A stretch of DNA of 63,210 bases, filler included, from Bigelowiella natans CCMP2755 (GCA_000320545.1; 8 parts of 8 records of this genome joined end to end with filler, not necessarily neighbours in it), one strand, 5' to 3'. Counted from the first letter of the whole stretch, positions 3,281-60,272 are shown. Numbers and translations: made by a program. Notes: generated from the letters alone by a model not told the origin.

Positions 3281-4410
3281 ATGAGCCTTTGCGCTTCGAA
3301 CCAGCTTAAGAAACCATCTGAGAAGTCTTCCATCCAATTCTCCAAGGTGATGTGATGGAGAGTTATTTTATATACTCGGAAAGAAGTGAGCCTTCGGACA
3401 GCGAGCAAACAATATGAATGCAGCACACACGTCTTGCACTAAAACCACTGTTGCGTAAACCCAAGGGATCGGTTTGAGTGGTGCCTCTTTAGCAACAGTT
3501 TCTTCTTTCATGTTGGACGCTATTTCTCTGTGCCCTCACCGGATGTCACCTATATTTTCAGCGCAATGCTGATGGCGAGCGCGATGCTGCAGGGCGGCGA
3601 AAAGGACAAAATAATAGAGACATAATTGGTATAGTATCGTCAATTGGTCTGCAGAAAGTAAATGGTGAGAGGCGCTCCCTATTAAATATCAAGAAACGGA
3701 ATAGCAACACTTCCATAAATGAGAGCAACCATCTGCTCAACGAAAGTGACTCGTCTACTTCCATTTCCAGTATGCAAAAACTCAACTCTTATCGTAGCCT
3801 GGATGTTGTGGGTAAAATACAATCATTAATCATTACAATCGTTCTTCTTTCAATTATTTTTCACTGTCCTATTTTGTGTGGTTACCTTCTTGCTGGAGTG
3901 TTTACTGGTCGAATGGTTGGGTGTGGGGGGGGGGTTCATGTATCCAATATGTGGCTTGTGGCAGATTTGTTCTAAAATCTATTGTACCTGGTGTTTGAAT
4001 TGTTCGCAGCGTCTATAACACCTGAGGAACAACCAGTGAACACGCAGCCAAAAGCAACGACTTCGCGGACCTGGCCTTCCGACGACACCAACGGCTGCCA
4101 ACCCAGTGATCTACGTCTTGCGGAAAGTCCAGACAGAAACGTGGTAAATTTAAATAGGACAATGTCTAGCTCATCATCAAGCTCTTTCCGTTTTACGGTT
4201 GTGGAACGGCAATTTGGATATCGAGAAAGGACTGCGACAGACTGCGATAAACCTCGCCTGGCGAAGGAGAAGACAATTTTATTCATGCTTAAAAACCACC
4301 AGCTTGACCCTGAGGAAGGGCAATTTATACCTCTATACCGCGACATAGATTCAAACAAGCAGGACCTGATAAATATCTTGTGTTGTTGTTGGGCATGGTC
4401 CACGGGTTAA
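3281..4410 (+). CDS. Hypothetical multi-exon, Ser-rich protein
   Basis: Open segments at about 3562-3810 (RNADGERD...SLDVV) and 4010-4410 (SITPEEQ...CCCWAWSTG*) join in phase across a GT..CAG intron. Start uncertain. No family recognised. Confidence 0.35.
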
Positions 4411-4769
4411 CACCATCGCCTATTAAATGCATCAAGCGTCTCGGGAGTGCGATATCATCTCGCCTAGAGCTGCTTTGCTGGAAGAGCTCGATATTGTAGA
4501 GTTAATAGAATACTTCTCGTTAACAATTTAGAAGTGAGTTTCCATCTCATAAATAGCAAATGAATCATTTACTGCTTCTCCGTCATTCGGTGCACCGTTT
4601 ACTACACTGTGGTATGAAGTGCAGACTTAGCCTCATCTTTAAGGTTTTAGAGTAATGAAAATTCCTTAGATTGACGTTGAACTTCTTGTTCGACTGCCCG
4701 CAATAATTTAATGTACATTTCGTATGATTTTGTCCAGTTAGAATTCGCCCACTGTAGTGAAATCAAAAT

Positions 4770-5760
4770 TACGCTGCATGCATGCTAACCAAGATGACGT
4801 AACGCAAAATAGTTCCTAATCGTGAACATTCTTGCATACAGGCACCTAGCTATCTGCGCAGATGTAGGCATGATACGATATTGCGACATAGAGCAGTCAT
4901 CATATCTAGCTAGCTAGCTAATGCGTCCATGTGAAACTTGCCCGTCCACGACACCCGCCTGCTCTAGTCTAGTAGTGCTGAGCTAGCTAGCAAGCAAACA
5001 AGTGCACATGTCTAGATGTCACTTGTAGTTGTTGCCACATGCTCTGCTAGTGCTAGCTAGCATGGCACGTGAGCATGCATGAATTTGCCGGCTAGCCGGG
5101 CATCCATATGTCAAGTACCGCGTTTGACCAGTGTGCTCATGCAACTATAGTCAACAGTGCTTGCTAGCTTGGCGTGGGCGTACGTGCTACGCTGAGCTGC
5201 ACAATGTTGCACACTTGCATGCACGCAATCATTGATGTGTTCATTCTGCGCATTCGATCATTCATTCGCAATTCGCTGGACTGAGAGTTACGTTTGTTGT
5301 GCGCTTCCAAGAAAAGTGTTTGGCGCGCAGGGTGCACTACATTCCAGCCTCGCACACAGCATGCGCATGCAGCCCGCAGCGGCGCCGTGTGACCGCGATG
5401 ACGCACGCGCGCCTGATATGAGGAAACCTCCCTGCTGCTATTGATGTCACAATGACGAGCTCTGTTGATTTTCACAGGGCTGCGCGCAGAGGGGTCATCG
5501 CAGCCCCTGCAACTTTTTAGGGGCCATTGCAACCTCTCTAGCTCTGTGCGCAGTTGAACGATGACCTCTGTTGCGCATCAACGTGGGCTAGCGGAGCGCG
5601 AACAGGGGCCCACCGTGGCATGTCCTCCGTTCACCAAGAGGTGTACTGTGTGCCATCATGCATCTTGCATCTCTGAACTCCCAGCTAGTGTAGCCGGCAG
5701 CACAATTGCACTGCTTGCTCACCATGCACAAGGTTCAGTCTGCATTTTGCGTGACTCATT
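4770..5760. other. CTAG/CATG/TGCA-rich island between convergent genes
   Basis: Contains ctagctagctag runs and gcatgc, tgca, cacgtg. Lies between a + gene end (4410) and a - gene end (5853). Confidence 0.65.
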
Positions 5761-5852
5761 TTGCTGTGTGAAATCTGGTCTCCATGCGACAACAAACCAC
5801 AATCGAATCCAACAAGCCAAAACCGCTCACATTCACAGCTCGCCCGCAAACA

Positions 5853-7764
5853 TCACTCCTGGCCCTGCTCCTTTTTTTCTTCCTCAGAAACCTTTGGCAG
5901 CGGTGACTTTTTTTGGCCTAACAATATCGAATGTGCACCCCCAGCAATGACGCGAGAAATAACGATGTCTTTCGTGCCCTCTATGAGTTTTGGAGTAGGC
6001 TGGTCCTCCAACGACCCGTGTCCCAGAGCACCCGCACCCCCCTTGCCCCAAGACCATACTCCTTCTTTGGTGACTGCAAGACCGTGATTTGAGCCGGCAG
6101 CAATGTGTGTGACCTCGCTGCCATCAAATGCATCCAGGAGAGTCGGCGTGGGTTGGTCTTTGCCATCTTCGTTGCCCAAGGCTCCGCATTCACCACTACC
6201 CCACGTGTATAGCTTGCCATCCGAAGTTAACGCTAGGGTGAAATCATCTCCGCAACTCACCGAACGAATTTTGGTCTCTGCCTCAAAGGGAACAGAGGTT
6301 GGAACGACGATCGTCTGAGGTTTCTTAGCTGGCACCCCAAGCTGTAACTTTTCTCCTTCACCCCAGGCGAAAACTTTACCTTCCGCGTCGACAGCCACAG
6401 CATGTGCCCTCCCTGACGATACGTGTACAAACTTGGACTCGGAAGGAATCAGTTTTGGAGCCTCCTGAGTCTCCGCACCCCCATCTATCTCGAAACCGAC
6501 TCCAACAGCTGCTCCCCAGCTGAAGAGATTTCCCGATTTATCGTCAAGCGAGATCACGAATCTGCTATTCCCTGTTGCTGATGTGATCGAAGATACCTAG
6601 CGATGAAGTTAATGATGTTAACGTTGGTGTGAAAAGCAAGATCTCAAAGCAAAGGAAAGGGAAGTGGAGGAAAAGTCATCTCTCGCATAGAACATTCAAA
6701 TGATTGCACGAACTGATAAATACCTTAACTGGGACCATTTCCTTTGGTTTCTCAGCACCCACCTCTTCGTCCTTTTTCTCTTCCTCCTCCTCCACTTGAT
6801 CATCACCCTCTTTTTCCTCTGGGGGCTTTTCGGTCTGGACCGAGATTCTCTTAGCCTCCTCGTATATGCCCTGATCTGACTTGCTCGCCTCCCACACACA
6901 TCCACTGTCGTCCACACCAACGATCCTGCCATTCTCCCCGACGGAGAGACATTGCAGCTCCAAGCCCCACAGCCGCTCAATGAGGTTCAGCGGGGGGAGG
7001 GGAATCTCTAGCTTTGGTTTTTCGGCCACGTTTTCTTTCCCGGGCTCTTCCTTTTGTTCTTCCTCCTTCCCTCCCTCCTTTTTCTCTTCCTCCTTGTTTC
7101 CCTCTTCTGATTGGTCATCCTGCTTGACCTCCCCTCCCCAAACATATACGCGGTCGTTATCGAGAACTGCCACGCAATGATCCCCGCCAGCAACTGCCGT
7201 AAGCACATTAGAGCTGCCTTCGAGAAGCGGTATGAAGTAGCCCTTTGAGTTCGCATCGCCTCCATTGCCGGTCCACCACATTTGGAAGAGTTTTCTCCCT
7301 GCTTTCTCCTCGGTCTGACTGAAAAGCTTCTTCTGAGCCTCGGTCTCTCCCTCGTAGTCCAACAGCCATTGCCGCGTTGCACCCGCAAGCCGGTCCTTCA
7401 CTTCCTTCGATAACTGGGTGTGGGAGACATTTCGTTTTTCATCAAGCTCGGCCTGTTTCTTCGCCTCTTCAGCCTGTCTTGCGGCCTCTTCCGCGGCTGC
7501 CTTGGCCTTTGCTGCCTTCTCTTCCTCGCTTTCCTCTTTCTTCTCCTCGTCCTTCCCACCCCCTCTCTCCCCCTTTCTCCTGTCATTGCTGCCCCTGCTG
7601 TTGTCACCGTCATTCATTTTCTTTTTCTTCTTCTCCTCTTCCTCCCCCCCCTCATCCGTTGCCGAAGAGTCAGGGATGTAGGGCGGGAGGTTGATATGAG
7701 GGTTCCGTATCTCCTCTGCCAATTCGAGAGGAACACCATTACCTAAGCTCGAGTCTCGTGCGAT
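5853..7764 (-). CDS. RCC1-repeat (beta-propeller) coding region; probably the 3' part of the MYCBPAP-like gene
   Basis: RCC1 repeats include VSSGRAHAVAVDAEGKVFAWGEG..QLG, VSCGDDFTLALTSDGKLYTWGSGECGALG and IAAGSNHGLAVT..VWSWGKG..GALGHG. A phase-0 GT-AG intron at 6723-6597 joins the two ORFs. Alternative independent start at ATG 7836. Confidence 0.9.
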
Positions 7765-8030
7765 CTGGTTGGGGACATGAGAAGGTCTCATATAAGTTTG
7801 CGGTGAATAAAGGGATGTAGGTTCATGGCTGGCCATTTCGACGAGTAGCTGCTGCTAAGTGCTGCTTAGCTTTGCTCGATTCCAACAAAAACAACACATC
7901 TTTTTAAAAAAAAATCTGATCATCATCGGACTCTCCGGGACTAGGCGTGTTGTTCTATGACACTGCCAGAGCCCTGTCGCTTGAAAAGCATGGACAACGA
8001 TTGGAATTTACTGCAAACTACGACGGCTAC

Positions 8031-8123
8031 CTTAGGAATGCCTCTCGCGAGCGGGGTGAGGAGAGACTTTACGATTCGGAAGGATATTGGGTTGGGTGGC
8101 GGCTGGACCTGAAGAGAGAGAGA

Positions 8124-25479: not shown

Positions 25480-26180
25480 GCAGCTGGCATGAGGCATGCC
25501 TAGCTTATGTATAGTATGTAACAACGAGTCATCTTGTCGGTTCGGCCATTATAACCGATTGAACTTGTGAAGAGCATTGCCAATTGAAGAGGACTTGGTG
25601 ATTGATGGCACTAAATGGATACATTCGATCTAGCATTGTCTGGCCATTGCGCCTGTTACATGCTAGCATGATCGATCTGGTGAAGTATGCGATGAGCGCC
25701 TTGCATGTGGCAATGCTCTGTCGTCTAGCTGTTACGTTGTATAATTTTATGCACATTTGGCTAGCTGGGCATCGATCGTCCCTTTCCGACTTTGTTTCAT
25801 TGTCGTAATGTCTAGATGTTTTGTCTTTAGAGGCACGTACAGCTGTGCTAGCCGCTTTTTGAAATATGTCCAACAACTAGCTAGCCAACAAGCCGAGAAT
25901 TTCAAGTAGTGCGGTGCATGTGCACATGCTAGCATGCACGCTAGCGCGCTCTAGGCGCTGTCAGGCTGTGGTCTACATGTTCAAAGTGCAGCAGACACGT
26001 GATGATATGATTGATGCGCTCGTTGGCAATAACTATAGCTACTGCAATGTCATTATTTTATCATCACGCTGCCAGCGTACGTCAGGAGGCATATTGACCA
26101 ACAAGCTGCAAATATAGCTCGTAGAGCATGCCGTTGATATATCTAGAACATGCGGTGTATCATGCAGATTGTCTCGATCG

Positions 26181-26226
<46 letters not shown>

Positions 26227-26320
26227 GCCGTTTATACACATATGTACGAATCTCCAAAGAGCACTGCTCAACTTTATTCCAAAGGTAGCATGCCGATTGC
26301 ACGCACTAATAGCTGCCTAG
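25480..26320. other. CTAG/CATG/TGCA-rich island between convergent genes
   Basis: Dense in gctagcatg, tgcatgtgcacatgctagc and tctaga. Follows a + stop at 25409. Confidence 0.7.
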
Positions 26321-27259
26321 TCGTTCTGTTTTGAGGTCTCCGAAAGCGCCTTCTTTGCCACCCCTGCCCCCTCTGCTGCGACGATAATGATAAATAATAT
26401 TTCTCGGTCAGCTTGGAGTAAACATGACTAATCCAGACCGAGCCAGTATGAAACACATCAATTTATACCCTCTCTCTTTCTCTTTCTCTCTCTCTCTCTA
26501 AACACCCACGCGCAAAACACAAATACATGACACACATAGCGCACACACGCAACAAATCTACGTGAAAATCTCCCTCTGCATTCGTGAATCATCATATCAC
26601 CGGATGCAGCCGCGCCTCCGCCGCCGTTAGCAGTGAGAGCCACCTTCTTCTTCTCCATGCGCCTCTTGGACTAAACACACACACACACACACACACAAAC
26701 ACATACACAAATATAAATATCTATATCTATTACACAAATTGCTAACAAAATTGCGTCCGCGAATGCAGCGCGTATTATTCTCCCCCATGCTACTCGCCGC
26801 CTCCTCCCCCAAGATGGCTGCTATTCCTCACAAACAGCATCTAGATAGAAACCCAAGAAAAAATCGCGGGGAAACACACAACACAAAACGAAGGCCGGGC
26901 GGCCGCGGGAGGGAGAGAGACTTCATCAGCGTTTATAAGTCTCCCCGCCCGTTCTTGCTAGGTTGCAGTGCAGCGTTCGCTCACGATTCTCAATGGTACA
27001 TAGCGATGGATACAATGCAGCAGCAGCAGCGCAAGGACTCAGGCCAAGCCAAGTCGTACAGTTACCAAGGTCAGGCTAGTATAGCTGGAGAGCAGAGAGC
27101 GAAGAAGCTTGAGATCCGTCAGGAACTCTTGCTCGATTTCTGTTTTTCGCGCGAACAAGAGAGGGGGGGGGGGGGGGGGGGGGGGGAGGGAAGGGGATAG
27201 GTAGAGGACGATGATAGTGATGATGACGAGGATGATGGCAAACGATATATTCGAATACT

Positions 27260-27301
<42 letters not shown>

Positions 27302-28800
27302 ATAAATATTCGTACGAGCTTGTTAAATATTGTTAAATATTTGTCAGAAATACGAGAAAAACGGCGACTGAGTCGGTGCTGCAGCATCGTCCGAATTCAC
27401 GGCTCTAACGTGCGCGTTTGCTTGACGCAAGTCACCGGGAAAATAACGAACCAAAACAAGGATTTCCCCTGCATCGCACCACCACTAGCAGCAGCAGCAG
27501 CAGCAGCAGCTACTTCTCTTGCCTCTGGAATCGAGTTTTTGAAAACATCGCCCTCCTCCTCTGCAAAAAACTTTGCCATTGCTGCTATTGCTGCTGCTAC
27601 TACTACTTCTACTACTACTACTATTACTACTACTACCATCACGACAACGACGATGCCTGATTTGACTACTATTACTACTATGGACATTTCTTCTACCGTT
27701 CCTACTCACTACTCACCTTGAATATCTAATTTCTCCGCAGCAGCGTCATCTGTTGTTTTGGGTGCAAGCAACCATCACACAGCGTGAATAAAGACCGAAT
27801 CACCATCGTCATCTTAGTGGGCATTAGTAGCCAGACACAAACCGCACGTACTGTGTTTGCTGTGCATCTTTGGTACACCCACGATGCCACCGCTCACGAT
27901 GTTATTCACTCACCACAGTGACGATGTTTGTCTTTTATTTTGCAATTTTATTCTTGCCCCCTAGCCTCCCCCCCCCCCCCCCCCTATCGTTCGAGGAAGG
28001 GCCGATCCCAGATCTGGAAGTGGGCGTGCCCCCCGTACCGCTTGTCTCCTTACTACTCACGGAGGACTGCTAGCTCCTGGCGCTGCTTTTCCTCCTGCTT
28101 TCGCGCCCCCCCCTCCCCCGCCAAGCTCGAGGCGGTGAGAGCCGACCTGCGTGTGAATGTGTGGGGGAGGAGATTCGTGAGAGGGTGTGAGTTCGCTGTG
28201 GGGCGCAGGATGGTTTTTGGTTGTTTGGCCATCATCATCATCTTCAATCATTATCATCGTTATCATCATCGTCATCATTATCATCGTCATCATCATCATC
28301 ATTATCGGCTGACCGTTTTCGTCGCCTTATTGAGGACTTCATGTGTGTTGATAATGCTGGTTCGGACCTAAGGGATGGTGGTGGTGGTGGTGGTGATGAT
28401 GATGATGGCAGTGATAATGCTGCTGCTGATCATGGTGATGATGGTAGTGATAATGCTGATGATGATGTGATGATGATTGATGATGATGGTGATGATGATG
28501 GTGATGAGGATCCTGCTATGTACATGCGCGTGCGAGGTGTGTGTTTTTGATCATACATCTATCATACTATCGTGCGCCGCCATTTCAACAATGCGCCGCA
28601 GCTAGTGCATAACAACTACAATAACAAGAACAAGAACAACAAGAACAACAACAACAGCTACTTGCCATGACATCGCACCTTCCGCAGCTTTGCATATACT
28701 TGCTTGACCTTCTCAGCCGCTTTAACTCGATCGGCATTTGCCTGATGTGAAAACAGCACCTGTAAAGACCCGCTGCTTCTCATTCTCCCCATACCTTAGA
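26320..28800 (-). CDS. Unidentified multi-exon gene, 3' part
   Basis: Minus-strand donors GTGAGT (about 28060 and 27716), GTCAGC and GTGCGA. A phase-compatible chain reads ADRVKAAEKVKQVYAKLRK|VRTSIINTHEVLNKATKT|VGSHRLELGG. Full model not resolved. Confidence 0.4.
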
Positions 28801-29364
28801 ATAGCAATATACCCTGCAAACTCTCTCTCTCTCCTTCGACCCCCCCCCCCCCCCCCCCTCCTTTCAAAAACAATAACACACGTTTGTGGTGGGCACCCCG
28901 AAAACCCTACCGCTGGAGCCGAACCCCCCCTCTCCCCAGGGGTGGATATCGTCGAGGGGGGAAAAAGCCTTTGCAGGGGGGGAGGGGGGGGGCATATTCC
29001 TCAGGGGGGGGGTCGCATTACGCGATCGCGCGTCCTACAAAGAGTGCTCGGAAGTTTGGGAGGGGGCCCCCCCCCCCCGTTGGGGAGAAAGAAGGGCGGA
29101 TCCCCAGACTGTCTAGGGGTGCGGGCACNNNNNNNNNNNNNNNNNNNNNNNNNNNNNNNNNNNNNNNNNNNNTTAATTAATTAANNNNNNNNNNNNNNNN
29201 NNNNNNNNNNNNNNNNNNNNNNNNNNNNTATCACACACACGCCTTCATTTACGACGACACGCCTGAACGACCGATCACGTATATATGTCTTGTTTTTTGT
29301 AAGTGTCGTGTTGCGTTGCACCCATCCCCCCCCCCCCCCTCCCCCCCCTCCCCCTTTCCCACTT

Positions 29365-29771
29365 ACCGTGATCTATGAACTTCGCGTCGTTGGCCTTGAC
29401 CATAACACTAGCTGTTCTTTCCACCTCCTCCTCTTCCTCCTCCTCCTCCTCCTCCTCCATCATCATCTCTCCCTCGTCCTACGAACAAAGACAGGGGGAG
29501 GGGGCTCCTCAACTTGCCTTCGGTGATGACTGGAAACGTCGTCGCAGTAATCACATGGTTTCTAGGGCGCCAGGCGATGAGCCATACGTGCTACTACTAC
29601 TACTACTACTACTACTATTAGCATTACAACTACCTCATTCTCTCCTTGGTCGTAGACCTTCTGGACTTTCTATGGGCAGTAAAGCAGTAGCAGTGGCAGT
29701 TGAAGTGTTCATATTTGCATGGATTACTATGTATATACGTGCATATGTGCGCCACGCGATTGCGTGTTTGT

Positions 29772-29829
<58 letters not shown>

Positions 29830-31140
29830 GGAGAGAGAAGGAGAGAGAGAGCATCCACCATCTTCTCGTCAGCTGTTATTCGCTTCCGCCGTCCATTCTC
29901 GTCTAAAGACTCTCCCGATTTCTTCTCTGTATCGCTCGACTAGGTGGTAATAGTACACACGTGTAATCATCATCATCATCATCATCATCATTATCCCCAT
30001 CATCTCTATCATGAGTACATCATCACCAGTATTTATCATAATAGACACACGAACGCATGCTGTTGCCCCCATCCAAGCACACACTCACAGAGAGAAAGAG
30101 AGAGAGAGAGAGGGGGGGGGGGAGGGGTTCAGATCACAGCGAACATGACTTCACAATATCTCGAAAAATACGGAGAGTTGTTATCGGGCTTTAAAAGAAA
30201 CGTAATGATCGATCCATTCTATTATTCTTGATTGGAAACAGCACGACAACAAATACCGATTCGCCTCTGGACTCCAGGATGTTTCCGGTCGAAATGGTGG
30301 ACTCCTGGCTCTCATGCTCGGGCAGCCTTTTGCCCTCCTGTCCCGCGTGGTGCAAGGAAGAAGAGGAAGAAGAAGAAAATGAAGATGAAGAAGACACGGG
30401 GGGGGGAAGAGAATGAGAAGGGACAAGGAGGGTGTGAGAACAAATGAAATGGATGGCAGTGAGTAAGCACGCACCATCTTCTTGTCGCGCTTCTTCTTTT
30501 TCTCCAGTTGACGTTGCTTGTATCTTTGAGACTGCGACGTTATGAAACGCAGCGCGACAGAATTATTAGGAGTTTTTATTGAGAATCCCCCCCCATACAT
30601 GCCCCACACACGCACAAATCCATGAAACACGATGATGGCTGCAAGATAAGGAGAAGAACGAAACGAAGAAGCAATGTTCGAGCTTTTATGTAACAACTAA
30701 CTTCTCTCCTCTTAATCCGCTTCTTCCACCGTTTTCGCACCAAGTGCAGCACCTAGAGGATGATGATGTCGATGATGTTGATGATCATGATGAGGGCAGC
30801 GGGTTAGGTACCTCTCCCCCCCCCCCTTTGCTCTTTCTGTCCTCAGTCCCGTAGACATTGAGTTTATTGTGCCTCCGATGTTTCTTCTCCTCGTGCTCAA
30901 GGATATCTTCTCTGGTGGGGGGGATGGAAAGATTTAGTTCGACTTGTTTTTTTTCTGTTGTGCTCTGCGCATGTGGCCCATCATAACATCATCCTTGTCA
31001 CTGCAGCAGCAACAGCTTTTGGGGGTGTTAGGTTAGGGAGTACCCTCCCTCCATAGTCATAATAGGAAGGCCGGTGAGATGGGCAAGGAGTCGTCTGTAA
31101 TAAAAGGAAGTGTAATAACTATGTAAATATATAAACCTAT

Positions 31141-31194
<54 letters not shown>

Positions 31195-31996
31195 TAAGAC
31201 TGTATGTATGGTGCGGGGTTACAGATAATATGCACACATCTACTACCGGTCTTTGTAGATCTCTTTATGCTCTTCATCCTCAAAGCCCAGAGCCTGGGAG
31301 GCGGTGGGAGGGCATGTAAGATTTGGCGAAGATTGAACGATGATCAAAGTGGAATGCTTTACGCGTTGTTCTACAACAACTCACCTTTATAGCTAGTTCC
31401 GTCATGAACCTCGATTGCCGTTTCGCTGTTAATGATAAAGGGGAGATCAAGGCGAGGAGGAGGAAACGACGACGACGACGACAAAGTGTAATGGAAGACT
31501 GCATATTCTGCGTCAATGACAGATAGCACAAAAGTGACGTTTAGTTTTGTATAGCAGATCTATTTCTGTTCGTTCAAGTCAAGAACGTTTGTTTGTGATG
31601 AGTACACGTGGCTGACCAAATGTGAAGTGTCGGCCTTTCTCCGCTTCCCTGAATTTTTTCCGGTCCCTGAATAGAAATTGTGATCACCCCCAACGGCTCC
31701 TCCTACATGCGGTCATTCGCAAATAACAGCTTCACGAATTACCTTCCAGGATTTTGCTTCGATCGCGAAGATGCATAGTGGCTGCTCTTGGCACCACCTC
31801 TGATCCCACACAGTCGCCTCATCCCCCAGGTCCTTCCGAGATTCATATCTAGGTGGAAGACTGGTGGGTAGGGCCGTCGCAGCATACCTGATGATGATGC
31901 TACCACCGCCTCTTCGTCGGTCGCCTGGCATCGGAATTGTTGCGGCGACATTGCTACAAAGAGCAGAAGCTTCAACGCCACTGCTGCCATGGTCAT
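29365..31996 (-). CDS. Unidentified multi-exon gene with an N-terminal signal-peptide-like sequence
   Basis: Starts MTMAAVALKLLLFVAMSPQQFRCQA, followed by small GT/AG-bounded exons between microsatellite introns (e.g. VVVEQRVKHSTLIIVQSSPNLTCPP). May continue into 26320-28800. Confidence 0.4.
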
Positions 31997-32517: not shown

Positions 32518-33028
32518 ATGGCCCGAAGATCCGGAGTGCAGAAACAGGTACTTGAAGCTGTTCCATTTTTATGTTATAAAACGAAAACTTAGTTGAGGGA
32601 CTTGGCATTGTGCGCTTTGCGCAAAAGGTATTGGCTTTGTACCGTTCCTTCCTAGTTGCCGCACGACAAAAACCTGAACTGGATAGACAGGTTGGTTGGT
32701 ATATGATTACTGGTGGCGGTAAAAATGCAAAATTCATTGATCTCTTTTCTTAGCCATGGATTGAGACAATCCGCAGTGCCTTCAAGGATGGTGCACAAGT
32801 AAAGCGCAACAATTTTAAGAAGATAGAATATTTGCTCAGGTATATCGATTTACTTATTTTCAAACTAAATAATAATACTATATGTATTTATACATACATA
32901 TTATTTATGATTTTTTATTCTTGTTATTATTAAGACAAGGAAATAAACGATTGCAAACGTTCAAAGATTCAAGCGTCAAAAGTATGCGAACATACGGTGT
33001 CAATTCTTCACCCGTCAGCAAAGATTAA
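32518..33028 (+). CDS. SDHAF1: Succinate dehydrogenase assembly factor 1 (LYR-motif protein), 4 exons, 90 aa
   Basis: Exons 32518-32547, 32628-32690, 32754-32839 and 32935-33028 give MARRSGVQKQVLALYRSFLVAARQK...IRSAFKDG..VKRNNFKKIEYLLRQGNKRL. Not in the ORF track. Confidence 0.88.
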
Positions 33029-33228
33029 CGTAGCGCAGTAGCTCAAAATATAGTAAAATAAACTTTGATTCAGATGGTAAAATCTGGAGCCAATTTTTTA
33101 GTATTGAGGATAGCCTCGTCTTCCGCTATTCTTTCCTAGATAGTGCTTACGATTATTCTAGTTATAATGAGACGGATGTAATGATATGATTAAATCTTTT
33201 CAATTGTCATCCTTACGATGATTACACA

Positions 33229-33272
<44 letters not shown>

Positions 33273-33277
33273 TACCT

Positions 33278-33329
<52 letters not shown>

Positions 33330-33392
33330 CTATGCGTACTTGGAACCCGCTTGACATATCGTGCGGAGTAAGTACGAAAAAAAAAAATATAG

Positions 33393-33426
<34 letters not shown>

Positions 33427-33454
33427 TAATATTCGACGCAGCGATGATGCTGCA

Positions 33455-34870
33455 CCAGCTAGCTAGTGAATCAATGAATGATGCCAGGCGAGCTATGATT
33501 AGTGATGACGTACATGCGTCATCAGGCTAGTCTAGTCGTGCACGCTATATGGATTACGCAGCTATGACGCTACGCTACAGACGACGCACACAATTAATGC
33601 GTGCAATGGCATGTCTAGATGTGGTACATCTGTGATGCACAATGATTGTAAATGTAGCATGAACAAGAGAACAGATGCACACAGTCATCTTACATTGACG
33701 AGTGTGCACAAGTCCAAGCAAAGCGAGCGTAGTAATTGCAATGATGAGCAATCTAGAGCGCACATCACAGCTAGCGAAGCTGTCTAGCTCAGTGAGAGCT
33801 GCCGCATGCCGGCATTTGCGGACCATTGAATGTTTTTGCATTGACCAATTGGCAGTCATTTGAGCGTAGCATGCTAGCATGCTGCACAGAAATCTTTATG
33901 TTCTGCTTGATGCATGTGCGATGTGACGACAAACTGGAGAAAATTGGGAAGTCGTGCTGCAACAGACAAGGTGTACATGCCAGCATGTACTAGTGTAGTA
34001 GCTAATGGCGTGTGCTGGAACACACAATAGACATAGCTAGATAGCATGTCAACATGCACAACATTATATTCACTGTGCACACCGTGCTAGCGTGTCTACT
34101 ACTAGTCTGTGGTGTACGTTGTTACGCGCGCGGGGGCATGCGATTGACAGTGCAAGCACGGTGTGTCAACAGCATGCAGCAGACGAATCTAGCTGCACGC
34201 ATGGATGCGGACGTATCGTAGCTAGACACCACAACGCTGCTTGTGCTGCACGTATAACAATGAATGTGTAATGAATCAAATCAAAATTTTTCAACATCCA
34301 CATGACATGGTCATCCTCGTCATGCATGTAGTTGTTCTACTGTGCAATGCAGCTTGAGCGGCTAGACTACTGTGTACGTTTGTGTGCACGTACAAGCATC
34401 AACGCATGTATGTACACGTCTCTCTGCTCAGTTATTAGTGACGCATCGTATCATCGTATCTAGCTAGCTAGGCATGCTATTGGCATGGGATGGGCCGCCA
34501 AGTGCGATCTTATTGACACACACATGGCATTTCATTTTTTTATTTTTTAGTTTCATTAGATGCATGAAGTGTCTAGAGATGTGTGCGCGATCGCGAGAGA
34601 TGCAGTGCACATGCTAGAATCGAATGTGCGAACCTAGGCATGATACGATCGAGCATGTCCGTCGTTTAGACATAACATTAAACATGTGGTAGACACACTG
34701 CTCCTTGCTCTGTGTGTCTGCAAATAAAACATGCAACGAAAAGATGGAACACCACATCTGTGGCGTGTTATAATCAAAATATGTCTCCAAATTCACAGAA
34801 CATCTAGACATGGTTGCTACTATCTAGCTACGTCCGCAACGCTTCTGTAGATAGAAGTTACAAAGTTCGT
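33455..34870. other. CTAG/CATG/TGCA-rich island between convergent genes
   Basis: About 1.4 kb of palindromic-tetramer-rich sequence between the SDHAF1 and COX6B stops. Confidence 0.75.
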
Positions 34871-34939
34871 AGCTACACTCATTGAATCTATCCAGCAATA
34901 TCCTATTCTGGATTAAATGGTGAAGTTTCGACGTATAAT

Positions 34940-35472
34940 TTACTCGTCATCATCATCATCATCGTCTTCATCATCTGACCAAAAAAGGTTTTTTCAGGAC
35001 AAGGTATGCAAAATGAACCAAATGAAACGAACCTCCTGCGTCCTCGCATCCATGGTTTACGCCATAGAAGTTGTGGACCTTCTTAGTACCACCGTGTCCA
35101 TCGGAAACCTCGCGCCAAACGCGAGCCTCCTTCCAAGCCTCAAGCTAAATAGTTTGTTTAGTGATACTAGTTAGTCATTATAACAATAACCTCCTGAAAG
35201 ACTACATTTACCCAATCGTTTGGACAGAGAGAGAATGCTGCTTTTTTGAAGACCAAGCACTTTGCTGCGTCATCTCCGCTCTCCTTTTGGCACTTTAGCA
35301 TCTCGTTGTATGCAGTCCTGCGAGACAAAATGATGAAGTGAGATACTACAATTGATGACATTCTTTAATTCCACTACCAGCAGTTCTTGGCTTGATTTTG
35401 GGATGAAATAAAGCGAAGATCAATTGCTGCAGTTTGCAACTTGAACTTGCCGTCTTCGCCAAAGTAGCTCAT
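34940..35472 (-). CDS. COX6B: Cytochrome c oxidase subunit 6B
   Basis: Reads LQTAAIDLRFISSQNQAKNCW|TAYNEMLKCQKESGDDAAKCLVFKKAAFSLCPNDW|LEAWKEAR, with the CX9C/CX10C pattern. Acidic last exon. Confidence 0.9.
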
Positions 35473-36383: not shown

Positions 36384-38779
36384 ATGTCACGGGTGAGCAG
36401 CATTAGTCGATACAAGATCTTCGATCGGATGCTCAAAGTCTGTGTATTTTATCAGGGATCTAGTGTTGATGAGACTCTCTTTGCAAGCAAGCATAACAGT
36501 CGCAGAACCTCCCGAAAAGGCTACACGGTGAGCTTTATACCTCCGACATCGAAATCCAGATTATCCCCTCATGGGTTTGTGTATCTCTGGAATTCTTGAA
36601 TAAAAAACGAATGAGGTTCTTGGTATATTCCTAGGTTATCTCTAAGAGTAAGCTGAAGAATCTACTTGGTCAAGGAGATGCAGTTGTCCTGAAATCGAGC
36701 GAGCTAAGTGCAATCAAGGCCATGGCTCCGCGCACGGTTACAAATGCCAAGACCCGTTCGAAGGAGAAGTATAACAAGACTCTGACAATAAGATCTCAAC
36801 AGAGAAAGTAGATTCATCCAATTTATTATTTCAAATAAGAATGGACAACCCAGGAATATTTTTGAGGAACACGTTGCCTGTCTTAATTACCTCTTTACAG
36901 AGATCGAATGATGAAAAAAGGGAAAATGGGAACTGTTTCTATTGTCGAGGCAGATAAAGAAGTCGTTGTAAACAAGAAAGAAGGTGCGTTCTTGCTAATG
37001 TCATTGAAAATTGTGTTTTGATGCCCTAAATTTATGTTATCATCCTGTCGTCCTATCCTCCTATCCTCAGACGCGAACGATCTTCAGAAACGAAGAGACG
37101 AGGATCACGATGATGTCAAACATATGAATCAAATTCTTCTCTATGCACAATGTGCAAGTATCCGTGACAAGCAACTAGAAGAAAAGAAAATGATTGCTCA
37201 GCGGAGAGCTGAGGAAGAAAAGGAAGTTTTCATGAAAATGGAAGAGGAGGTATGCGGAACATAGCCGGGCGTGCGTACCAAAGAGGGGGGGAGTAAGTTG
37301 ATGACGGCATAAAACCTGATTGTGCGTATCTTTGTGATGGTAGCGCGTACGGGCAATTCGAATGGTTGAGGAGCGTGAAAAAGTTAAAATTATGAAAAGA
37401 AAAGAAGATGCGGTTATGCTACGAAAGCAGGTGAGTCGAGATATCACAAAATTAAGCCGGATCTTAGTCTTAGTAGCCGCCGAGATTGAGGTGTGAATTT
37501 TTTTCCACAGATTCAATTCCGCGAGCGTGAAAGACTTCGAAAGAGAGAACGAGCTGAACAGGAGGCAGAGCTTATGCTCGAGCGTATAAAAGTACATAAT
37601 TGTATTCGCATGCCTTTTTCTAAATCTCTCCTCCTTCATGAGATAGTACATGAAGTCCAGTTCGGATCTCACATGGTTTTTTTAATTCTAACAGGAAAAC
37701 GAGCGACGCCAGGAGGAAGAGGCTAGAAGAAAGATTGAACATGGTCGCAAGCTTCACGCAGAAGTTATGGCCGCAAACGATGCAGCAGCTAGAGCTAAGC
37801 TTCGCAGGAAGCAAGAAGAGGTGCCATCCCTAACAAACACTTACGATTTGAACATCAACTATCACCGACTCGGTGGTATTCTTCCAGTTTTTTCTCGATC
37901 ATTCTTCAAATTTCTGTTTGGGAAGTTCTCTGGTTAGAAATGAGAAAAACGGAAGGACATACGATTTCCCATCCGTCTCGAAAAAATCGAATCGAGTGGT
38001 GAAACTTCATAATAAATAACTGCCTTCGATATACGATAGAATGAAGAAAACGAGAGGATTGCGCGATACATAAAGCAAAAAGAGCTCAAAGAAGCCCGAG
38101 AAGAAGAGAGACTGGCAGCAATCAAGGCGGCGAAAGAGCAGGAGGTTGCTCGCTTACGGGCTCAACAGGAAAAGGCCAACGATAGACGGAGCGAGCTTGA
38201 TGAATTAAGGTGATTCTTTGATGCATAATTAATTGGACGTTGATATCCAGACAAAATCCTCATCATTTCTTTTGGTACACACACGTCCGTTGCAGAGCGA
38301 GACGTTACCAAGAAGCCAGCGACCGGCGTTGGAGGCTCGCTGAGAAAGAGAAGGCTATGAAGCAACGAGAAATGATGCGCGACATGGACCGGGTGCGGAA
38401 CGAGCAGAGGTTGTACAAAGAAAAAGCCATAAACGAGCAACGCAAGCAAGATCAGGAACTTCATCTCCGCACGCTCAAGTGGCAGAAGGAGCAGGAAGAG
38501 AGGGAAGCTCTCGAAGCCGAACGCAAAAGGATGGTTAGGATGCAAATCCAGGACACAGTTGTGCAGCAAATCTCAGAGCACGAGCGATCAAAAAAGGCGG
38601 AGAGGGAGCAATATCTCACCGAAGGAAATAAAATTAAAGCGGCTCTCGCGCAAGAGAAAGCTCGCATCGAAGCTGTGAAGGCTAACAAACTCATGCAAAT
38701 GAAAAAAATGGGCATTCCATCGAAGTACCAGGCGGAACTTGCGAAGAAAAAAGTTCTACAATCAAAAGTGACCCACTAA
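36384..38779 (+). CDS. CFAP45: Cilia- and flagella-associated protein 45 (CCDC19), multi-exon
   Basis: Motifs: SSVDETLFA; DEDHDDVKHMNQILLYAQCASIRDKQLEEKK; AAKEQEVARLRAQQEKA..ELDELRARRYQE; MGIPSKYQAEL. Confidence 0.9.
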
Positions 38780-39099
38780 GGTGAAACAGCCGCCACCATC
38801 CGTCATAGCAATGACATTATGATGCGGTGGATGTTGGGTCTGCTTACTTCTGCAGAGGTTTTAAAATGCGGTGATGCAACAGACTCAATGGCAAACTTGC
38901 ACAATAGAGACAAAGTCCTCCTTGACCATAGACGGACTTTGTTCATTTTTTACGTCGTTAGAGTTTGCTGCGCCACGGCCCGATGTACCTATAAATACAT
39001 AGATAGCATGCATGCCGCTTTTGCAATGTTTAACATTTGTGTAACAATGACCGCTTTATTGATGCTGACATACGTTGTATCGTATTAGAGTGAATTCAA

Positions 39100-53525: not shown

Positions 53526-54151
53526 GCAGTCATACAACCGATATAACAGGTAATAGCTAATCAAAATCCATTGCGGTGGTCGTCGATCTCTCTCATTCTT
53601 ATCTTGCAATGCTACGATGCTGCAGGAAGTTTAGGCATTTTCGCTCAGTCTCACTACCGACATTAGACCATGCGGGGAGGGAGGGAGGGAGGGGGGGAGG
53701 GAGGGGGGTATTGGGGGGAAGGGGAGGGGATTGCGGCAAAAAACTTATAACAATTAAAAAGATGATGAGATTATACATCAAATCGTCTCCATCAACTCTT
53801 CTTCCCCTCCCCCCCTTTAACCACCTTGCGCATAGCCGACGTGGGTAGAGTGCACACCGGGCATTCTCATGAAGAGATTCTCTGAGCACCTGAAAGTAAG
53901 AAAGAAGGAGAGAAAGAGGGAGAGAAAGAGGGAAGAATCACGCACATCCCCGTATTCTTTTCATAATCGCGCTTCCACGGGAAACAACCATGACAGCGGA
54001 AAGGGGGGAGGGGGGGCGGGGGCGGCATGCCGATCGGAGTTTCTTCGAAAATTCTATCTACCAGAAACAGCCCATTCCGAGGGAAACCATCTCCATGTTT
54101 TCAGGGAATGGAGGGTACATTGGTGTGCCTGAAGTGTGACGATGGTGATGG

Positions 54152-54200
<49 letters not shown>

Positions 54201-55511
54201 GGTGATTATTGTAGATAATTCCCGTAAAAGAATGCAAAAACTTGATGGATGATACCCCCCATCCTCAACCACAAACCACCTCATCGTATAACGTAAGAAC
54301 CGACTCTCAATTTTAAGAAACTGCTACCATGCCGTGAGCACAATGATAATAACAACATGTGCACAAAAGTGCTGCATTCACGAAGAATGAACCTAGAAGG
54401 AAATGCTTCTCATCCTTCCCTGGGGCATCAGGAATGGGAGACTCAGTTCCCTGAAGAGGAGGGGGGGGGGGAGATTATGTGATGGAGGTGTCGGTGTCAG
54501 GCTGAAAGCGCTGTATGCTAGTGTTTCATGCTGCATGCAGATCATAGATAGATTCAAGATTCGACTATTCTACAGCTGCTCTTGCATTCTAATCATTAAC
54601 GTCGTCGTCGTCGTCGTCGTGGCACAACCGCAATGCAGGCGTTCTTCTCGAGGAGTTCCACTGGTTTCCCCCATCCAAAAGCAGCTGCAGTGCGAGGGCT
54701 ACTTGCTGCGAAATCACGTATAGATAGAAGCACGATGATGAATGGAGAGAATGGCGAGGGTGTTGGTGACAGTCTCATTGTGCAAACTGCTTCGGCGCAC
54801 ACACATCATCACCAAAAAGGCCAGGTTCTTATCTAAATACATTCTCGGGTTACTCGGTCCTACCCATCGCGTACGCTGCGAGAGTAGTTCCCATGCCTAC
54901 TGCAAACCCCTTCGATCGCGCGGCCTTGTTGATCATTCTGCCGGCGAAATTGCGAGCCGTCGGGATCCATCCTGCGTAACGAGGGCGTTGTTTCGAATGA
55001 CGTCGTCGCTCTTAAGATGTGTGATTGGGACGATGTGGTGGAAAAGGAAACGATGGTTGGGACAGGAGAATTAGGCGCGGTCAAAACTCGAAGCCACGTG
55101 CATGTGCGTGTTTGTGCGCGCGCGCGCGCGAAACCAATGACACTGAAAGACGACGTTCCACTACTTTTAATGGCCCTGCTTCCCACTCCCCCTCGGACAT
55201 TTCTGAACGTGTTTAAGCCCCGACGCATGCTTGCACCCGCGAAGCCGAAGGCAAGAGAAGAGGACGGAGCGTTGTCTGGTGAATGAAAGAATGAAGCATG
55301 ATTACGGCATCTATCTCTCGTATTGGAAATACAAGAAATCACGCGCCGGCAAGCACATTCTCGCGAACGAACCTTCCTCGGCGTTTTTCGTAGCGAAGAG
55401 TACTACACAGGCGAGGGCCAATGCCGCAGCTGCTAGAACGTAAGCGAAGGAAGAGGAGGAGGAGGAGGAGCGGCGGTTGGAGAAGGGCTGTGCCGCAAAG
55501 CGTGCATACAT
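51472..55511 (-). CDS. msrA: Peptide methionine sulfoxide reductase A with bipartite targeting presequence
   Basis: Reads PPFPENMEMVSLGMGCFW|CSENLFMRMPGVHSTHVGYAQ|GVTKNPSYEEVCSG|TNHNEVVRVVYDP|FWERHDPTTLNQQGNDRG|TQYRSGIY|FYYAEIYHQQYDAKPG|SRQYCGL. Confidence 0.93.
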
Positions 55512-55846: not shown

Positions 55847-56503
55847 ATGGCTTCCCGACCCCCTCCTCAGTCGCCGTCGCCGTCGGCGTCACCGCTCCTG
55901 CGAGTGTTGGCGGCGCTCTCCGCGATTGGCGGAGCCCATGGACTTACTATGCCTGCATATTTGGCTCATTCCCAGGTGGGTGGGACTGTGGCGTGCCATT
56001 TGTGTCATCATCTTGCTGAACGTGCCCTCCTCCCATGCTAATCCAACATACAGGCCAGCTTCGGGTACGTGCAGGATGCGCCGATTCCAGAGCTAGGTTC
56101 CCTTCGCGACGTCTTTACCAATCTATCCAGTACCTGTGAGGTATCGTATTTCCGATTGAATGAAATACAGCAGCAACCTTTATCTAACTAAGGCGCGCTC
56201 TCTCTCTCTCTCCCCCCCCCCTCCTCCCTAGGTGCTTGTGAACGTAAAAGCGAGTTCTGTGAACCCCACGGACCGCCATGTGGATGCATACCGGTTACCC
56301 AAAGTTATGGGCGCTGACGTTGCGGGAGTCGTCGTGAAGGTGGAAGATTCGTGTTCTCTTCTCAAACCAGGAGATAAAGGCAATATTGGACAATCATTGC
56401 TCCTTGCACTGTTGCGGAATGGGAGGAGCATCGTTTCCTTTCGAAAAAAATGCCCCTTTTCACCTTCTCCTATTAATAGTGTTTTATTTTTGATATTTTA
56501 TCA

Positions 56504-56542
<39 letters not shown>

Positions 56543-57584
56543 CTCTCTCGCTCGCTCTCCCCTTAACGTGGAACATGTGGTTTGCTTTTGCACTCCTCGC
56601 TCCCTCTCTCCCTTTCAGTGTGGGGTGATATCGGAGCAAACGCATTCTTTGCAAACGGCACAAAAACGAAGGAGCTCGGCGCCTACGGGGCCTTTGCTGT
56701 GGCCCTCGAAAGCCAGCTAGGGAAAATGCCAGAGTAATTAGTATTTCATAGCCATTAGGAGCACTAGTCTAATCTCTCAGCGATAAAAGATATGATCGTT
56801 GCGTTGTATATGATAGATTCAACTCCTTCTTATAGGCTGTCCTCTTTCTCCTCCTCCTCTTCCTCTATTTTGGTGTATGCGAAGGAACATCGGGTATTTA
56901 GAAGCAGGGGTACTACCCAAAGTAGCATTAACTAGCTACAAGGCTCTCGTTTGGTATGCTGCTGCGCCTTGGTCTTCTCCTCAAAGACAAGAGATTTATG
57001 ATCATGATGACGACGGTAATCATGATGATGGCGGCAAAGATGTGCTTATACTTGGAGGCTCGGGGGGAACAGGTCGTCAAGGAGGAGGAAGAGGAGGAGG
57101 ACGAGAGAAAAACTATAAAATGCATTCCGTTAATTATTTTTTTAAATGCCCCTAATGCAAACATTCCGAGCGTAACCTCTGCATGTAGAGCTACCGTCGA
57201 TAAAGGTAATGAGTTGTGATATCTTCTTCCGATGGAAAATGTCCTGCAATAACAACGGCTCAGGTTCGATTGGATTGCAGCTTGCTCGTGTCTTCGGGGC
57301 CCGCTCATTGGTGACAACTACCTCGAGCAAGAACGCCGCGTATTGCACGTCTCTCGGTGCTACACGGGTCATTGATTATCACACAGAGAACTGGTGGGAG
57401 GTGCTGCCCAGCGACTCGTTTGACGTCATCTACGACACGGTAGCCGCGAGCTATGAAGAGTCTAGCACATGCTTTCTCTTTTAAGTTTCCCCCTTTTCTC
57501 CTTTTTCTCTCTTTTCTCTCTTCTTCCTCCTCCTCCTCCTCCTCCTCCTCCTCCTCCTCCCTCTACCGCATTGTTGTCATCCTT

Positions 57585-57617
<33 letters not shown>

Positions 57618-57933
57618 GTCATCATGCTTCTCTCCTCCCCCCCACCCCCCTCCTTCGCGCGCTTGGCCTTTTTGCAGGTCGGCCAGGAAGGGACCGCGGA
57701 TAGGGCTATGCAAAAGCTCAGACGCGGGGGATCCTTCGTGACGATTGCCGGGGCTCTGTCGCAGCACCCAAAGCCGGGCGTCTCGCAGAACTTCTTCATC
57801 AATAGCGACACGAATCTCTCGAATCTGAAGGAGCTCAACGCTCTCAAGTGAGTGCGGCTACACGCGTGCCCCCTCCTGCCTCAAGAAGGAGAAGAAGAGG
57901 CCAGAAGAAGATGAGGGAAGGGGAATAGGACTC

Positions 57934-58012
<79 letters not shown>

Positions 58013-58505
58013 GTAGAAGATTCCCCATAGCAGCAAAATCGATCCCAGCTCACACACATTGCATAACGTCCTGTTACTGGCCATTTTATTACTGCCACCG
58101 AACGTTCATGATGAATGCCGATCGGCCGACGACTTTCGAAAGTAGTCGCTGCCTTACTAACGGGCTGAAACCACGTGCACAGGGGCCTTGTGGAGGACTT
58201 CAACCTTACCATGCATATAGACGGACAATTCAATCTGAGCCGAGTGGAAGAGGCCTTTGATATGAGGTTTGACATCTACAACGGCCATATGTGATGCTTT
58301 CCAATCATAGCCTTTTCTCTTTATAAATTAACATGCGTGTCAGAAGGTGGTGGATTTTATCTCACTCTGTGTGCGTGTGGGCGTGTGGGAGAGGGGGGTA
58401 TCTGCCGCTGATATATATATGTTTTCCCTTGTGTTTTGGTTACGTCAAACTAGCGCTCAAGGCCACGTTGTTGGCAAAGTATCCGTCGCAGTATCGCTGC
58501 AGTAG
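55847..58505 (+). CDS. Medium-chain dehydrogenase/reductase (NADPH:quinone/alkenal reductase-like, Zn-independent)
   Basis: Motifs: VLVNVKASSVNPTD; GADVAGVV; GAYGAFA; LPKVALTSYKAL; VLILGGSGGTG|SIGLQLAR; LGATRVIDY; FDVIYDT|VG; GHVVGKV. Confidence 0.92.
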
Positions 58506-58785
58506 CATCCAGGCGCAAGGAATAACGAGTCACCGCTTGTTGTGCGGAAAGACTGCGCGCGAATCGCGGTTCCATTTCGATGAGTGCCGTGCTTAACAAA
58601 TAACTCTGAGAGCTGCGGTGTGCAGTCGTTATGTCATTTTATACATACATGCCGACGACGACGGCACCGTCGTTCGTCACTATGTGGTCATTGTCCACAT
58701 TGTAGTTTTTCTGCTTGCTAAGCCAGAAGTCGTCAGTAATCTAGGCAAATGTGTCATCAAATGACGCACAACAACTATGTACATA

Positions 58786-58829
<44 letters not shown>

Positions 58830-58844
58830 CGGATGTAATGAAAG

Positions 58845-58891
<47 letters not shown>

Positions 58892-58899
58892 CACTCTAG

Positions 58900-60272
58900 C
58901 ATTACCATGACTAAATCAGTATATATATGTATACGTCATGCTCGCACGCAGAGATGAATGCGGCGCGATCGATCGAAGCGCATAGCTAGATGGACCGCAC
59001 ATTGGCTATGGGCGGCCTGCTGTCACGTTTCGCATGTACTGGCATGGCTAGTGTACCTAGACACATGCGCGATCCAACAGGCACATCTAGCTAGCTAGCT
59101 CGCTAGGTATGTGAGACCTTACGGATGCAATTAATCAATTAAATTTGTTCAATGCTAGAATGGTTCATACTCATGCATGTATCGCTAGCTAGCTAGATCG
59201 TAGCTGTGCGAAGCAGCGGCTACAGCGTAGATGTTGAATCCATTAGTCTCAGCTAAGATGTGTTCCGGCCATGCCATTGAATGCATGGTGAGTTTCGGTC
59301 ATGTGCTAGATGTGGTTGTCTGTTGCAGTATAGCAGACTCTAGATTAGCAGAGCTCCTGGGTAGCCGTCGATCAAAAGACTGGCAAGGCGACTGGCTAGC
59401 TGGCCTACGACTGACAATTGCACACAGTCGTTGTCTGCACAGTGACGACGATCGACATCACGTGCCATCACGCTAGCACGCGCCGCGTCAGCCACGTTTT
59501 CTCTAGCTAGCTAGATCTGCTATGCATAGAGTTGTTAGAGGCTAGATCTGTATGTAGTTCTAAACAGATTTTTGCAGAGGCGCGCCCAAGACACAGCTGG
59601 CGGACAGCTAGCTAAACAGCGAGAAGAAACTGGGCAAATCAACTGATGATCGAAGACTCGAATCATCATCATTGTCAACTAGTCTGCTTTTAGGGACTCA
59701 TAAGTCCCTATACGTGTACGCGTAAGGAACACATGTACCCATGCACACCACATGGCCTAAAAAGCACACATGCTCTGCTAGTCTGTTCATATCCACACAT
59801 GCACCAAACAAGCCACTACACATGTACCATTGCTATTACAAGCAACACATGGTACACATGGATGCATGTATGTACATGTGAGCGCTATCATTTGGCACAT
59901 GTGTAGCTATATATATAGGTACATGTGAAGTACGTGATGTACACATGTCGTAGACGGCTACACGTTTAGGGACTTATAAGTCCCTACGTGCTAGCTCATG
60001 GATGATGCCATGCACATGCATGGCGCAGAGACTGCAATGCGCGCGTAGCGGCGCGGCAACAAACAACATGCTGCTATGATGTGAATGCAACATCATTGCA
60101 TGCTGGCCTGGCGGATCCAACGATGTTGGCTAGCTGTGAACGCTACGTAGTCACAACTATAGCGAACGTAACCATTGCCACCTCGCTAGCTCGAGATCTC
60201 ACGCTTGAAATGCATCACCACATGCATGCGTTAGATAGTTAGATGATAGACACAGTCATTAATACCATAAAT
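58900..60272. other. CTAG/CATG/TGCA-rich island downstream of the MDR gene
   Basis: Same composition as the other islands. Ends at a gap. Confidence 0.7.
59691..59986. mobile_element. Candidate MITE/foldback element (296 bp) with palindromic termini
   Basis: TAGGGACT(C/T)ATAAGTCCCTA occurs at 59691-59710 and 59967-59986. Inverted similarity continues inward (TACGTGTA / TACACGTT). Internal CACATG repeats switch to CATGTG. Confidence 0.6.

Follow-up and report, generated by a model that had tools for sequence, protein, structure and literature searches.

Alternating gene orientation and CTAG-rich blocks at gene ends in a window of the Bigelowiella natans nuclear genome

[quoted passage not shown] A strand-symmetric CTAG-rich block was observed in each convergent spacer and in two further 3' flanks, and it is this block that is new here; earlier work has already described each of the other elements, namely head-to-head pairs, alternation of moderate degree and special convergent sites. 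Our preferred reading, to which we assign a probability of roughly 0.5, combines alternation at every testable junction with a likely genome-wide bias, predicted shared promoters and CTAG blocks that would act as closed-chromatin buffers.

Strand alternation in the window

The window consists of eight pieces, with seven placeholders of 100 bases each (N44, a 12-base linker and N44) between them. Only junctions inside one piece were counted, since the placeholders do not give the size of the gaps and the pieces need not be neighbours in the genome. Along the gene order in Table 1, gaps follow PI3K, CRAL-TRIO, the first unnamed gene, alpha-galactosidase and the flank of the dehydrogenase, and PI3K itself also crosses one.

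Table 1 Features of the window in order of position (strand-less features are marked with a dot)
Feature	Position	Strand	Evidence
TE-like, multi-copy, highly transcribed unit (ORF 1-657)	1..1170 (end approximate)	-	RNA depth
CTAG/CATG-rich block, 3' end of RNA Z	1450..2141	.	composition
RNA Z, hidden spliced RNA without long ORF	2142..2840 (about)	-	RNA contigs
Divergent spacer Z/A, 14th junction	2841..3316	.	RNA contig ends
Gene A, spliced transcript without family match	3281..4410	+	RNA intron ends
Convergent spacer A/MYCBPAP-RCC1 with CTAG block	4411..5852	.	composition
MYCBPAP-RCC1 fusion gene, 11 exons, 1265 aa	5853..11647	-	open frame, Pfam, RNA contig
PI3-kinase-like gene (PI3K), crosses gap at 14046	12513..17100	+	PF00454 on one exon (E 0.0015), exon chain
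CDC45 3' end, separate gene past gap	17201..18013	+	PF02724, E 6e-9, model positions 582-619 of 624
Convergent spacer CDC45/RHS-like with CTAG block	18302..19443	.	composition
RHS/Crinkler-like gene with frame breaks, kept unjoined	19444..21684	-	411-codon frame, Atlas
CRAL-TRIO gene, 5' part	22237..24786	+	Pfam
WD40-like gene 3' end, weak support	24887..25409	+	WD40 match, E about 0.1
Convergent spacer WD40-like/unnamed with CTAG block	25410..26319	.	composition
Unnamed multi-exon gene, 3' part	26320..29128	-	GT-AG exon chain, some junctions only
Unnamed gene, 5' part, signal-peptide-like start	29229..31996	-	14-exon open frame, 302 aa
LYR-motif gene	32518..33028	+	Pfam
Convergent spacer LYR/COX6B with CTAG block	33029..34939	.	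composition
COX6B	34940..35472	-	Pfam
CFAP45	36384..38779	+	matches transcript-derived protein
Convergent spacer CFAP45/alpha-galactosidase with CTAG block	38780..40030	.	composition
Alpha-galactosidase, 3' part	40031..41442	-	Pfam
GrpE, 3' part	41543..42109	+	Pfam
Convergent spacer GrpE/MAP65-TPR with CTAG block	42110..43188	.	composition
MAP65 with C-terminal TPR pair, 18 exons, 680 aa (predicted single gene)	43189..48776	-	open frame, 17 GT-AG introns, Pfam
CEP44	49398..50886	+	Pfam
Convergent spacer CEP44/MsrA with CTAG block	50887..51471	.	composition
MsrA (peptide methionine sulfoxide reductase)	51472..55511	-	Pfam
Zinc-binding dehydrogenase family gene (ADH)	55847..58506	+	Pfam
CTAG block 3' of dehydrogenase, gap-cut, partner gene unseen	58507..60272	.	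composition
Gene after the gap at 60273	60373-61744	+ (weak support)	simple gene finder

The sequence-only reading had claimed a switch of strand at every junction. Within gap-free stretches this was observed at 13 of 13 junctions, with boundaries at or near those it had drawn, and a 14th, divergent junction between RNA Z and gene A was located at about 2840/3317 from the ends of RNA contigs.

Contigs from four RNA runs were mapped to positions 1-7000, the region covered by the direct RNA test; one of the runs was labelled RNA by guess, and its contigs were spliced and left empty bins. As a CTAG block had been seen beforehand at about 1480-2300, a minus-strand gene was sought there, and the RNA contigs then revealed RNA Z, which carries a 359-base intron with CT..AC ends (2334-2694) in 4/4 runs. 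Trial splices of RNA Z gave short ORFs only, and no Rfam match was found for it or elsewhere across 1-6500. The sequence-only reading had overlooked this RNA. Gene A, the weakest of the earlier models, was established as a plus-strand transcript by a GT..AG RNA intron (3811-4008) and a contig (3317-4719) in one of the four runs.

At 1-~1170, a TE-like unit runs in the same direction as RNA Z, and when it is added, 14 of 15 junctions switch. Its RNA depth is 40,000-260,000 compared with 14-650 per bin on genes, and 574 contigs were placed over 1-7000 in one RNA run. The unit had no match in Pfam and its Atlas leads were all under 0.9. Of two metagenome scans meant to widen the test to the genome, one returned a 1,362-base contig of the unit and the other no match; a scan of viral contigs found no matching locus. 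We infer that the unit is a retrotransposon, and we take its ORF to be gag. A CTAG block lies between this unit and RNA Z, which shows that tandem junctions, too, can carry one.

Four gaps are flanked by genes on the same strand on both sides, and in two of these cases the genes are different ones (PI3K/CDC45 and the dehydrogenase/the gene at 60373). Besides PI3K/CDC45, the three other gaps could correspond to tandem pairs, to whole opposite-strand genes or to single genes; the mean scaffold gap is about 1 kb by arithmetic from published sizes. The gene finder used for 60373-61744 miscalled the strand of gene A, the dehydrogenase, alpha-galactosidase and the middle part of PI3K. A splice-signal-only score failed on known genes, and no result rests on it. 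Strict alternation was therefore retained for the host genes of the window and given up as a rule of the genome, because of the TE-like unit and the four cross-gap junctions.

If half of all junctions switched, 14 of 14 would be observed with a probability of 6e-5. The 95 % lower bound on the switching rate is 0.81 for 14/14 and 0.72 for 14/15, when the TE-like unit is counted. This is one window only, picked out for its alternation pattern, and for that reason chance sampling of a genome with moderate bias could account for the result. The genome would then have 35-40 % tandem junctions, as in Cyanidioschyzon or Cryptococcus, and the CTAG block would mark any untranscribed 3' flank. At the strongest published biases (lowest co-directional shares of 34-39 %), the probability of 14/14 is 0.001-0.003, reaching 0.003 at 34 % tandem, the extreme value in a survey of 64 eukaryotes, and a 95-Mb genome could be cut into about 1,500 stretches as long as this one. 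The block at the co-directional Z/TE junction and the four cross-gap pairs on one strand also agree with this explanation. However, a rare draw is required, and the added Z/A junction, which was found without the earlier list of genes, switched as well. We regard a lucky window as doubtful and a strong genome-wide bias to the alternating layout, judged from this one window, as likely.

CTAG-rich blocks and divergent spacers

The dedicated end spacer that had been proposed for each pair of genes turned out to have a sequence signature of its own, with a CTAG-rich block in 7/7 convergent spacers. Together with the flanks 3' of the dehydrogenase and RNA Z, there are nine blocks in all. They contain 56 of the 60 copies of GCTAGC in the window within 11,057 of 62,594 bases (18 %), and no copy was found in the seven divergent spacers (4,662 bases). 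The binomial P value for this clustering (1e-37) is an overstatement, as the motif was chosen after looking and its copies are clustered. When a leave-one-out Markov score was calculated with microsatellites masked, values of +0.07 to +0.13 bits per base were obtained in 9/9 blocks, and values of -0.05 to -0.12 in 7/7 divergent spacers and 6/6 intron sets. The distinct composition is thus found at convergent and not at divergent sites (9/9 blocks versus 0/7 divergent spacers).

Compared with dinucleotide shuffles, CTAG is enriched 3.75-fold in the blocks (1.66-fold for the next 4-mer palindrome), GCTAGC 9.1-fold and TAGCTA 7.6-fold. Palindromes of 12 bases numbered 25 versus 3.9 expected from these shuffles and 10.5 from shuffles that keep the tetramers. 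No such excess was seen in introns, exons or divergent spacers. The observed/expected ratios of dinucleotides in the blocks were 1.64 for GC, 1.40 for CA/TG, 1.29 for AT, 0.58 for CC/GG and 0.98 for CG. RNA cover was absent from both blocks tested, at 1171-2106 (in four runs) and at 4720-5521, although contigs are better at showing that a transcript is there than that it is missing.

The seven divergent junctions all have adjacent genes in divergent orientation. Their spacers, taken from one start codon or RNA contig end to the next, measure 335-969 bases, all less than 1 kb, and contain no microsatellites. No 6-8-mer was shared across the seven spacers above the level of dinucleotide shuffles. 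These spacers are predicted to be shared promoters.

The CTAG/GCTAGC clusters could also be putative binding sites of a sequence-specific two-way terminator or chromatin-boundary factor, and orientation would then alternate because each gene needs an end element and two genes share one. In line with this, the signal is centred on one palindrome, is strand-symmetric (skews within 0.12) and keeps a distance of 63-776 bases from the spacer edges, and the RNA contigs of Z, A and MYCBPAP-RCC1 stop at the block edges. In addition, convergent sites are described as boundaries in Symbiodinium and Dictyostelium in the available parts of PMC8110479 and PMC11754127. However, neither a fixed motif spacing nor a longer consensus was found in the blocks, and the dinucleotide shift (GC, CA/TG and CC/GG) spans the whole block and looks mutational. 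We consider such a factor improbable.

Less probable still, and by a clear step, is an origin as decayed transposon remains that collected between gene ends because insertions are harmless there. The TE-like unit does adjoin one block, preferential build-up between convergent genes has been reported in bacteria (available part of PMC2942039), and CCA is depleted relative to CTA in the blocks, as cytosine deamination would give. On the other hand, CpG is not depleted, and when all spacers were compared by all-against-all blastn, homology among the matches listed was limited to motif or microsatellite matches of 16-32 bases. Among these matches, the blocks have motifs in common, not ancestry.

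We also considered CpG-methylation decay tracts. This candidate was rejected because CG stands at 0.98 while CA/TG is at 1.40, so that ordinary CpG-methylation decay gives no explanation of the blocks. For B. natans, the available part of PMC9998398 mentions a DNMT6 enzyme only. The main text of a 6mA survey (PMC12695648) does not mention the lineage, and PMC6461891, as far as its available part goes, is on nucleomorph RNAs.

Gene models behind the strand calls

Pfam backs 13 family calls, several of which are single short exons under Pfam's curated cut-off. By Pfam, MYCBPAP, RCC1, COX6B, alpha-galactosidase, MAP65 and MsrA are on the minus strand, and PI3K, CDC45, CRAL-TRIO, LYR, CFAP45/TPH, GrpE, CEP44 and ADH on the plus strand; for the dehydrogenase, alpha-galactosidase and CDC45, the strand was set by these matches. 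In the case of 26320-29128 and 29229-31996, which have no family match, it was read from exon chains, and in the case of 24887-25409 from the weak WD40 match.

Two apparent tandem pairs had been proposed to be joinable in frame by a GT-AG intron. For MYCBPAP and RCC1, the open frame and the length of the RNA contig support one gene: the RCC1 contig has 4358 nt, 3006 of them upstream of position 7000, where the fused 11-exon model needs 2777 (plus a 229-base UTR) and a free RCC1 836. The transcript evidence here is the length of the contig, not an alignment of its part upstream of 7000. For MAP65 and TPR, a single open frame runs through all exons and 17 GT-AG introns, and one gene is predicted from it; homologue searches with single exons returned no hit, a result of little weight in either direction.

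The region 12513-18301, earlier drawn as one unit, was resolved by Pfam as two separate genes: PI3K comes first, and the 3' end of CDC45 lies past a gap. The gap before 17201 must conceal most of CDC45, and the stop of this gene is probably at 18013. For the CRAL-TRIO gene, the start is probably at 22237 and not at 22654. The RHS-like gene has a 411-codon frame on the minus strand versus at most 122 codons on the plus strand, and an Atlas score of 0.96-0.97 with PF07999, present in 17 % of members, as the best named row. The LYR-motif gene is presumably SDHAF1-like, and we assume a CFAP45-like role for the gene at 36384..38779. The latter model equals a transcript-derived protein at 487/487 residues, and its exon 38222-38776 is 99 % identical to jgi Bigna1/86519 and MMETSP transcript proteins and 70 % identical to Lotharella CFAP45.

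An annotation artefact, with tandem genes merged or strands mis-assigned, can hardly explain the alternation: PI3K and CDC45 had indeed been merged, MAP65-TPR rests on its open frame and three of the gene pieces have no solid match to a family, but apart from three pieces every strand is fixed by family, RNA or long frame, the MYCBPAP-RCC1 fusion agrees with the length of the RNA contig, and the discovery of the hidden gene brought one more switch.

Proposed mechanism and comparison with known systems

According to the preferred reading of alternation with closed CTAG-rich buffers, promoters would fire in both directions, and a neighbouring gene would thus be best kept head-to-head. The only DNA outside transcripts and promoters would then be the stretch between gene ends, where short self-complementary units (CTAG, GCTA, GCAT) may build up by slippage and local mutation bias. 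The CTAG block would have begun as a footprint of silent chromatin, not as a conserved element, and the untranscribed closed blocks would buffer two oncoming polymerases. As background, open chromatin in B. natans is found almost only at promoters by ATAC-seq (available part of PMC8887012). One H3K9me3/H3K27me3 heterochromatin state is reported for the species in the available part of bioRxiv 10.1101/2025.03.17.643675, with repressive marks over 13-28 % of the larger genomes studied, B. natans included. The share of the window in CTAG blocks, 18 %, may be set beside this range.

A stronger version, which we hold only tentatively and think unlikely, is that the B. natans nuclear genome consists almost wholly of two-gene modules, each with a bidirectional promoter, outward genes and a shared palindromic CTAG element that would stop both polymerases and bound a chromatin domain of the size of a gene pair.

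In their head-to-head arrangement and in the 0.3-1.0 kb that separates their start codons, the pairs resemble the bidirectional-promoter pairs of less than 1 kb in the available part of PMC2871058. The human genome has 924 conserved short pairs among 5,855 divergent pairs, a minority class (same source), whereas in the window all host genes with a visible 5' end are so paired, and the partners have no evident shared function. Among the 64 species in Table S1 of PMC2871058, the co-directional share is 34 % in Cyanidioschyzon merolae, 35 % in Monosiga, 37 % in Cryptococcus and 39 % in Thalassiosira. A tandem deficit is common to these orientation-biased compact genomes and the B. natans window, but the window has 0/14 co-directional junctions (1/15 with the TE-like unit). 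The available part of that paper does not mention a spacer signature.

In Symbiodinium microadriaticum, a divergent unit is likewise flanked by convergent sites of their own base composition (available part of PMC8110479). There, however, long unidirectional blocks and a GC dip are described, whereas the window has one gene per arm and an enrichment of CTAG and palindromes; across the window, one host gene per arm was found in place of long unidirectional gene arrays of the dinoflagellate/kinetoplastid type. In Dictyostelium, convergent pairs act as loop anchors (PMC11754127, abstract), and the convergent sites here are likewise candidate two-way barriers. Only some convergent pairs anchor loops in that species, the abstract mentions no sequence block, and 50 % of Dictyostelium junctions are co-directional (PMC2871058 Table S1). 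Hi-C exists for B. natans (available part of PMC8887012).

The available parts of the Amorphochlora genome paper (PMC12730881), a 2026 rhizarian genome paper (PMC13746701) and the B. natans chromatin paper (PMC8887012) do not comment on how genes are oriented in chlorarachniophyte nuclei or on spacers of this kind, and the layout found in this window was not described in the literature that the searches returned. Novelty may also depend on the original genome paper with its supplement and on the bioRxiv supplement.

If it holds genome-wide, the alternation would go beyond the strongest among the 64 surveyed eukaryotes. It would also provide thousands of natural replicates on the ending of colliding transcription and on orientation versus chromosome folding, and ATAC-seq, KAS-seq, Hi-C and histone maps of the species are already in print. 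As a practical use, the CTAG block is an aid to annotation, as it led here to an RNA gene missed by eye. If the reading as two-gene modules is true, the genome would be the mirror image of trypanosome/dinoflagellate arrays, with a grammar that could be read from sequence alone.

Fused and irregular gene models

Two of the minus-strand gene models extend into additional domains. The MYCBPAP gene forms one 1265-aa frame with a C-terminal RCC1-like domain, and a TPR pair is predicted at the C-terminus of MAP65/PRC1. The RHS/Crinkler-like gene has a frame that is broken near 20850, near 20600 and also in its 5' part, and either a pseudogene or sequencing error accounts for these breaks. One intron of the dehydrogenase gene, judged by eye, apparently has GC at its donor site. 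The expected MsrA exon resembles low-quality sequence, and attempts to join the MsrA 3' exons did not succeed.

Positions of the features discussed
Feature	Positions	Strand
TE-like unit	1-1170	-
RNA Z	2142-2840	-
MYCBPAP/RCC1-like gene	5853-11647	-
RHS/Crinkler-like gene	19444-21684	-
LYR protein and COX6B genes	32518-35472	
CFAP45	36384-38779	
MAP65/PRC1 (predicted TPR pair)	43189-48776	-
Expected MsrA exon	~52100-52300	
Apparent GC donor (dehydrogenase gene)	~56379	
20-base palindrome, two copies	59689-59710; 59967-59986	
Gaps (each 44 N, 12-base palindromic stop linker, 44 N)	14046, 17101, 24787, 29129, 41443, 60273, 61745	

Repeats, blocks and RNA Z

The TE-like unit is multi-copy, with very high coverage and a gag-like ORF. 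L001, a sequence matched to this unit, aligned to its bases 886-169 and then diverged beginning at GT; thus a spliced form or another copy of the unit exists.

Among the CTAG-rich blocks, the longest complete one (1.9 kb) lies between the convergent LYR protein and COX6B genes, both small and both of the mitochondrial respiratory chain. The last block contains a 20-base palindrome twice, ~280 bases apart, one copy being perfect and the other having a mismatch. The gaps are artificial joiners whose length says nothing about the true gap size.

RNA Z, observed in RNA contigs, is abundant and spliced (two splice forms), lacks a long ORF and has no Rfam match. Contigs of wild strains exhibit single-base insertions within it. 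It is possibly a lncRNA or a micropeptide gene.

CFAP45 and the JGI annotation

The JGI model of CFAP45 (P0002) retains intron sequence that is absent from the transcript-derived protein (P0001). Because of this retention, JGI models may be unreliable for counting gene orientation genome-wide.
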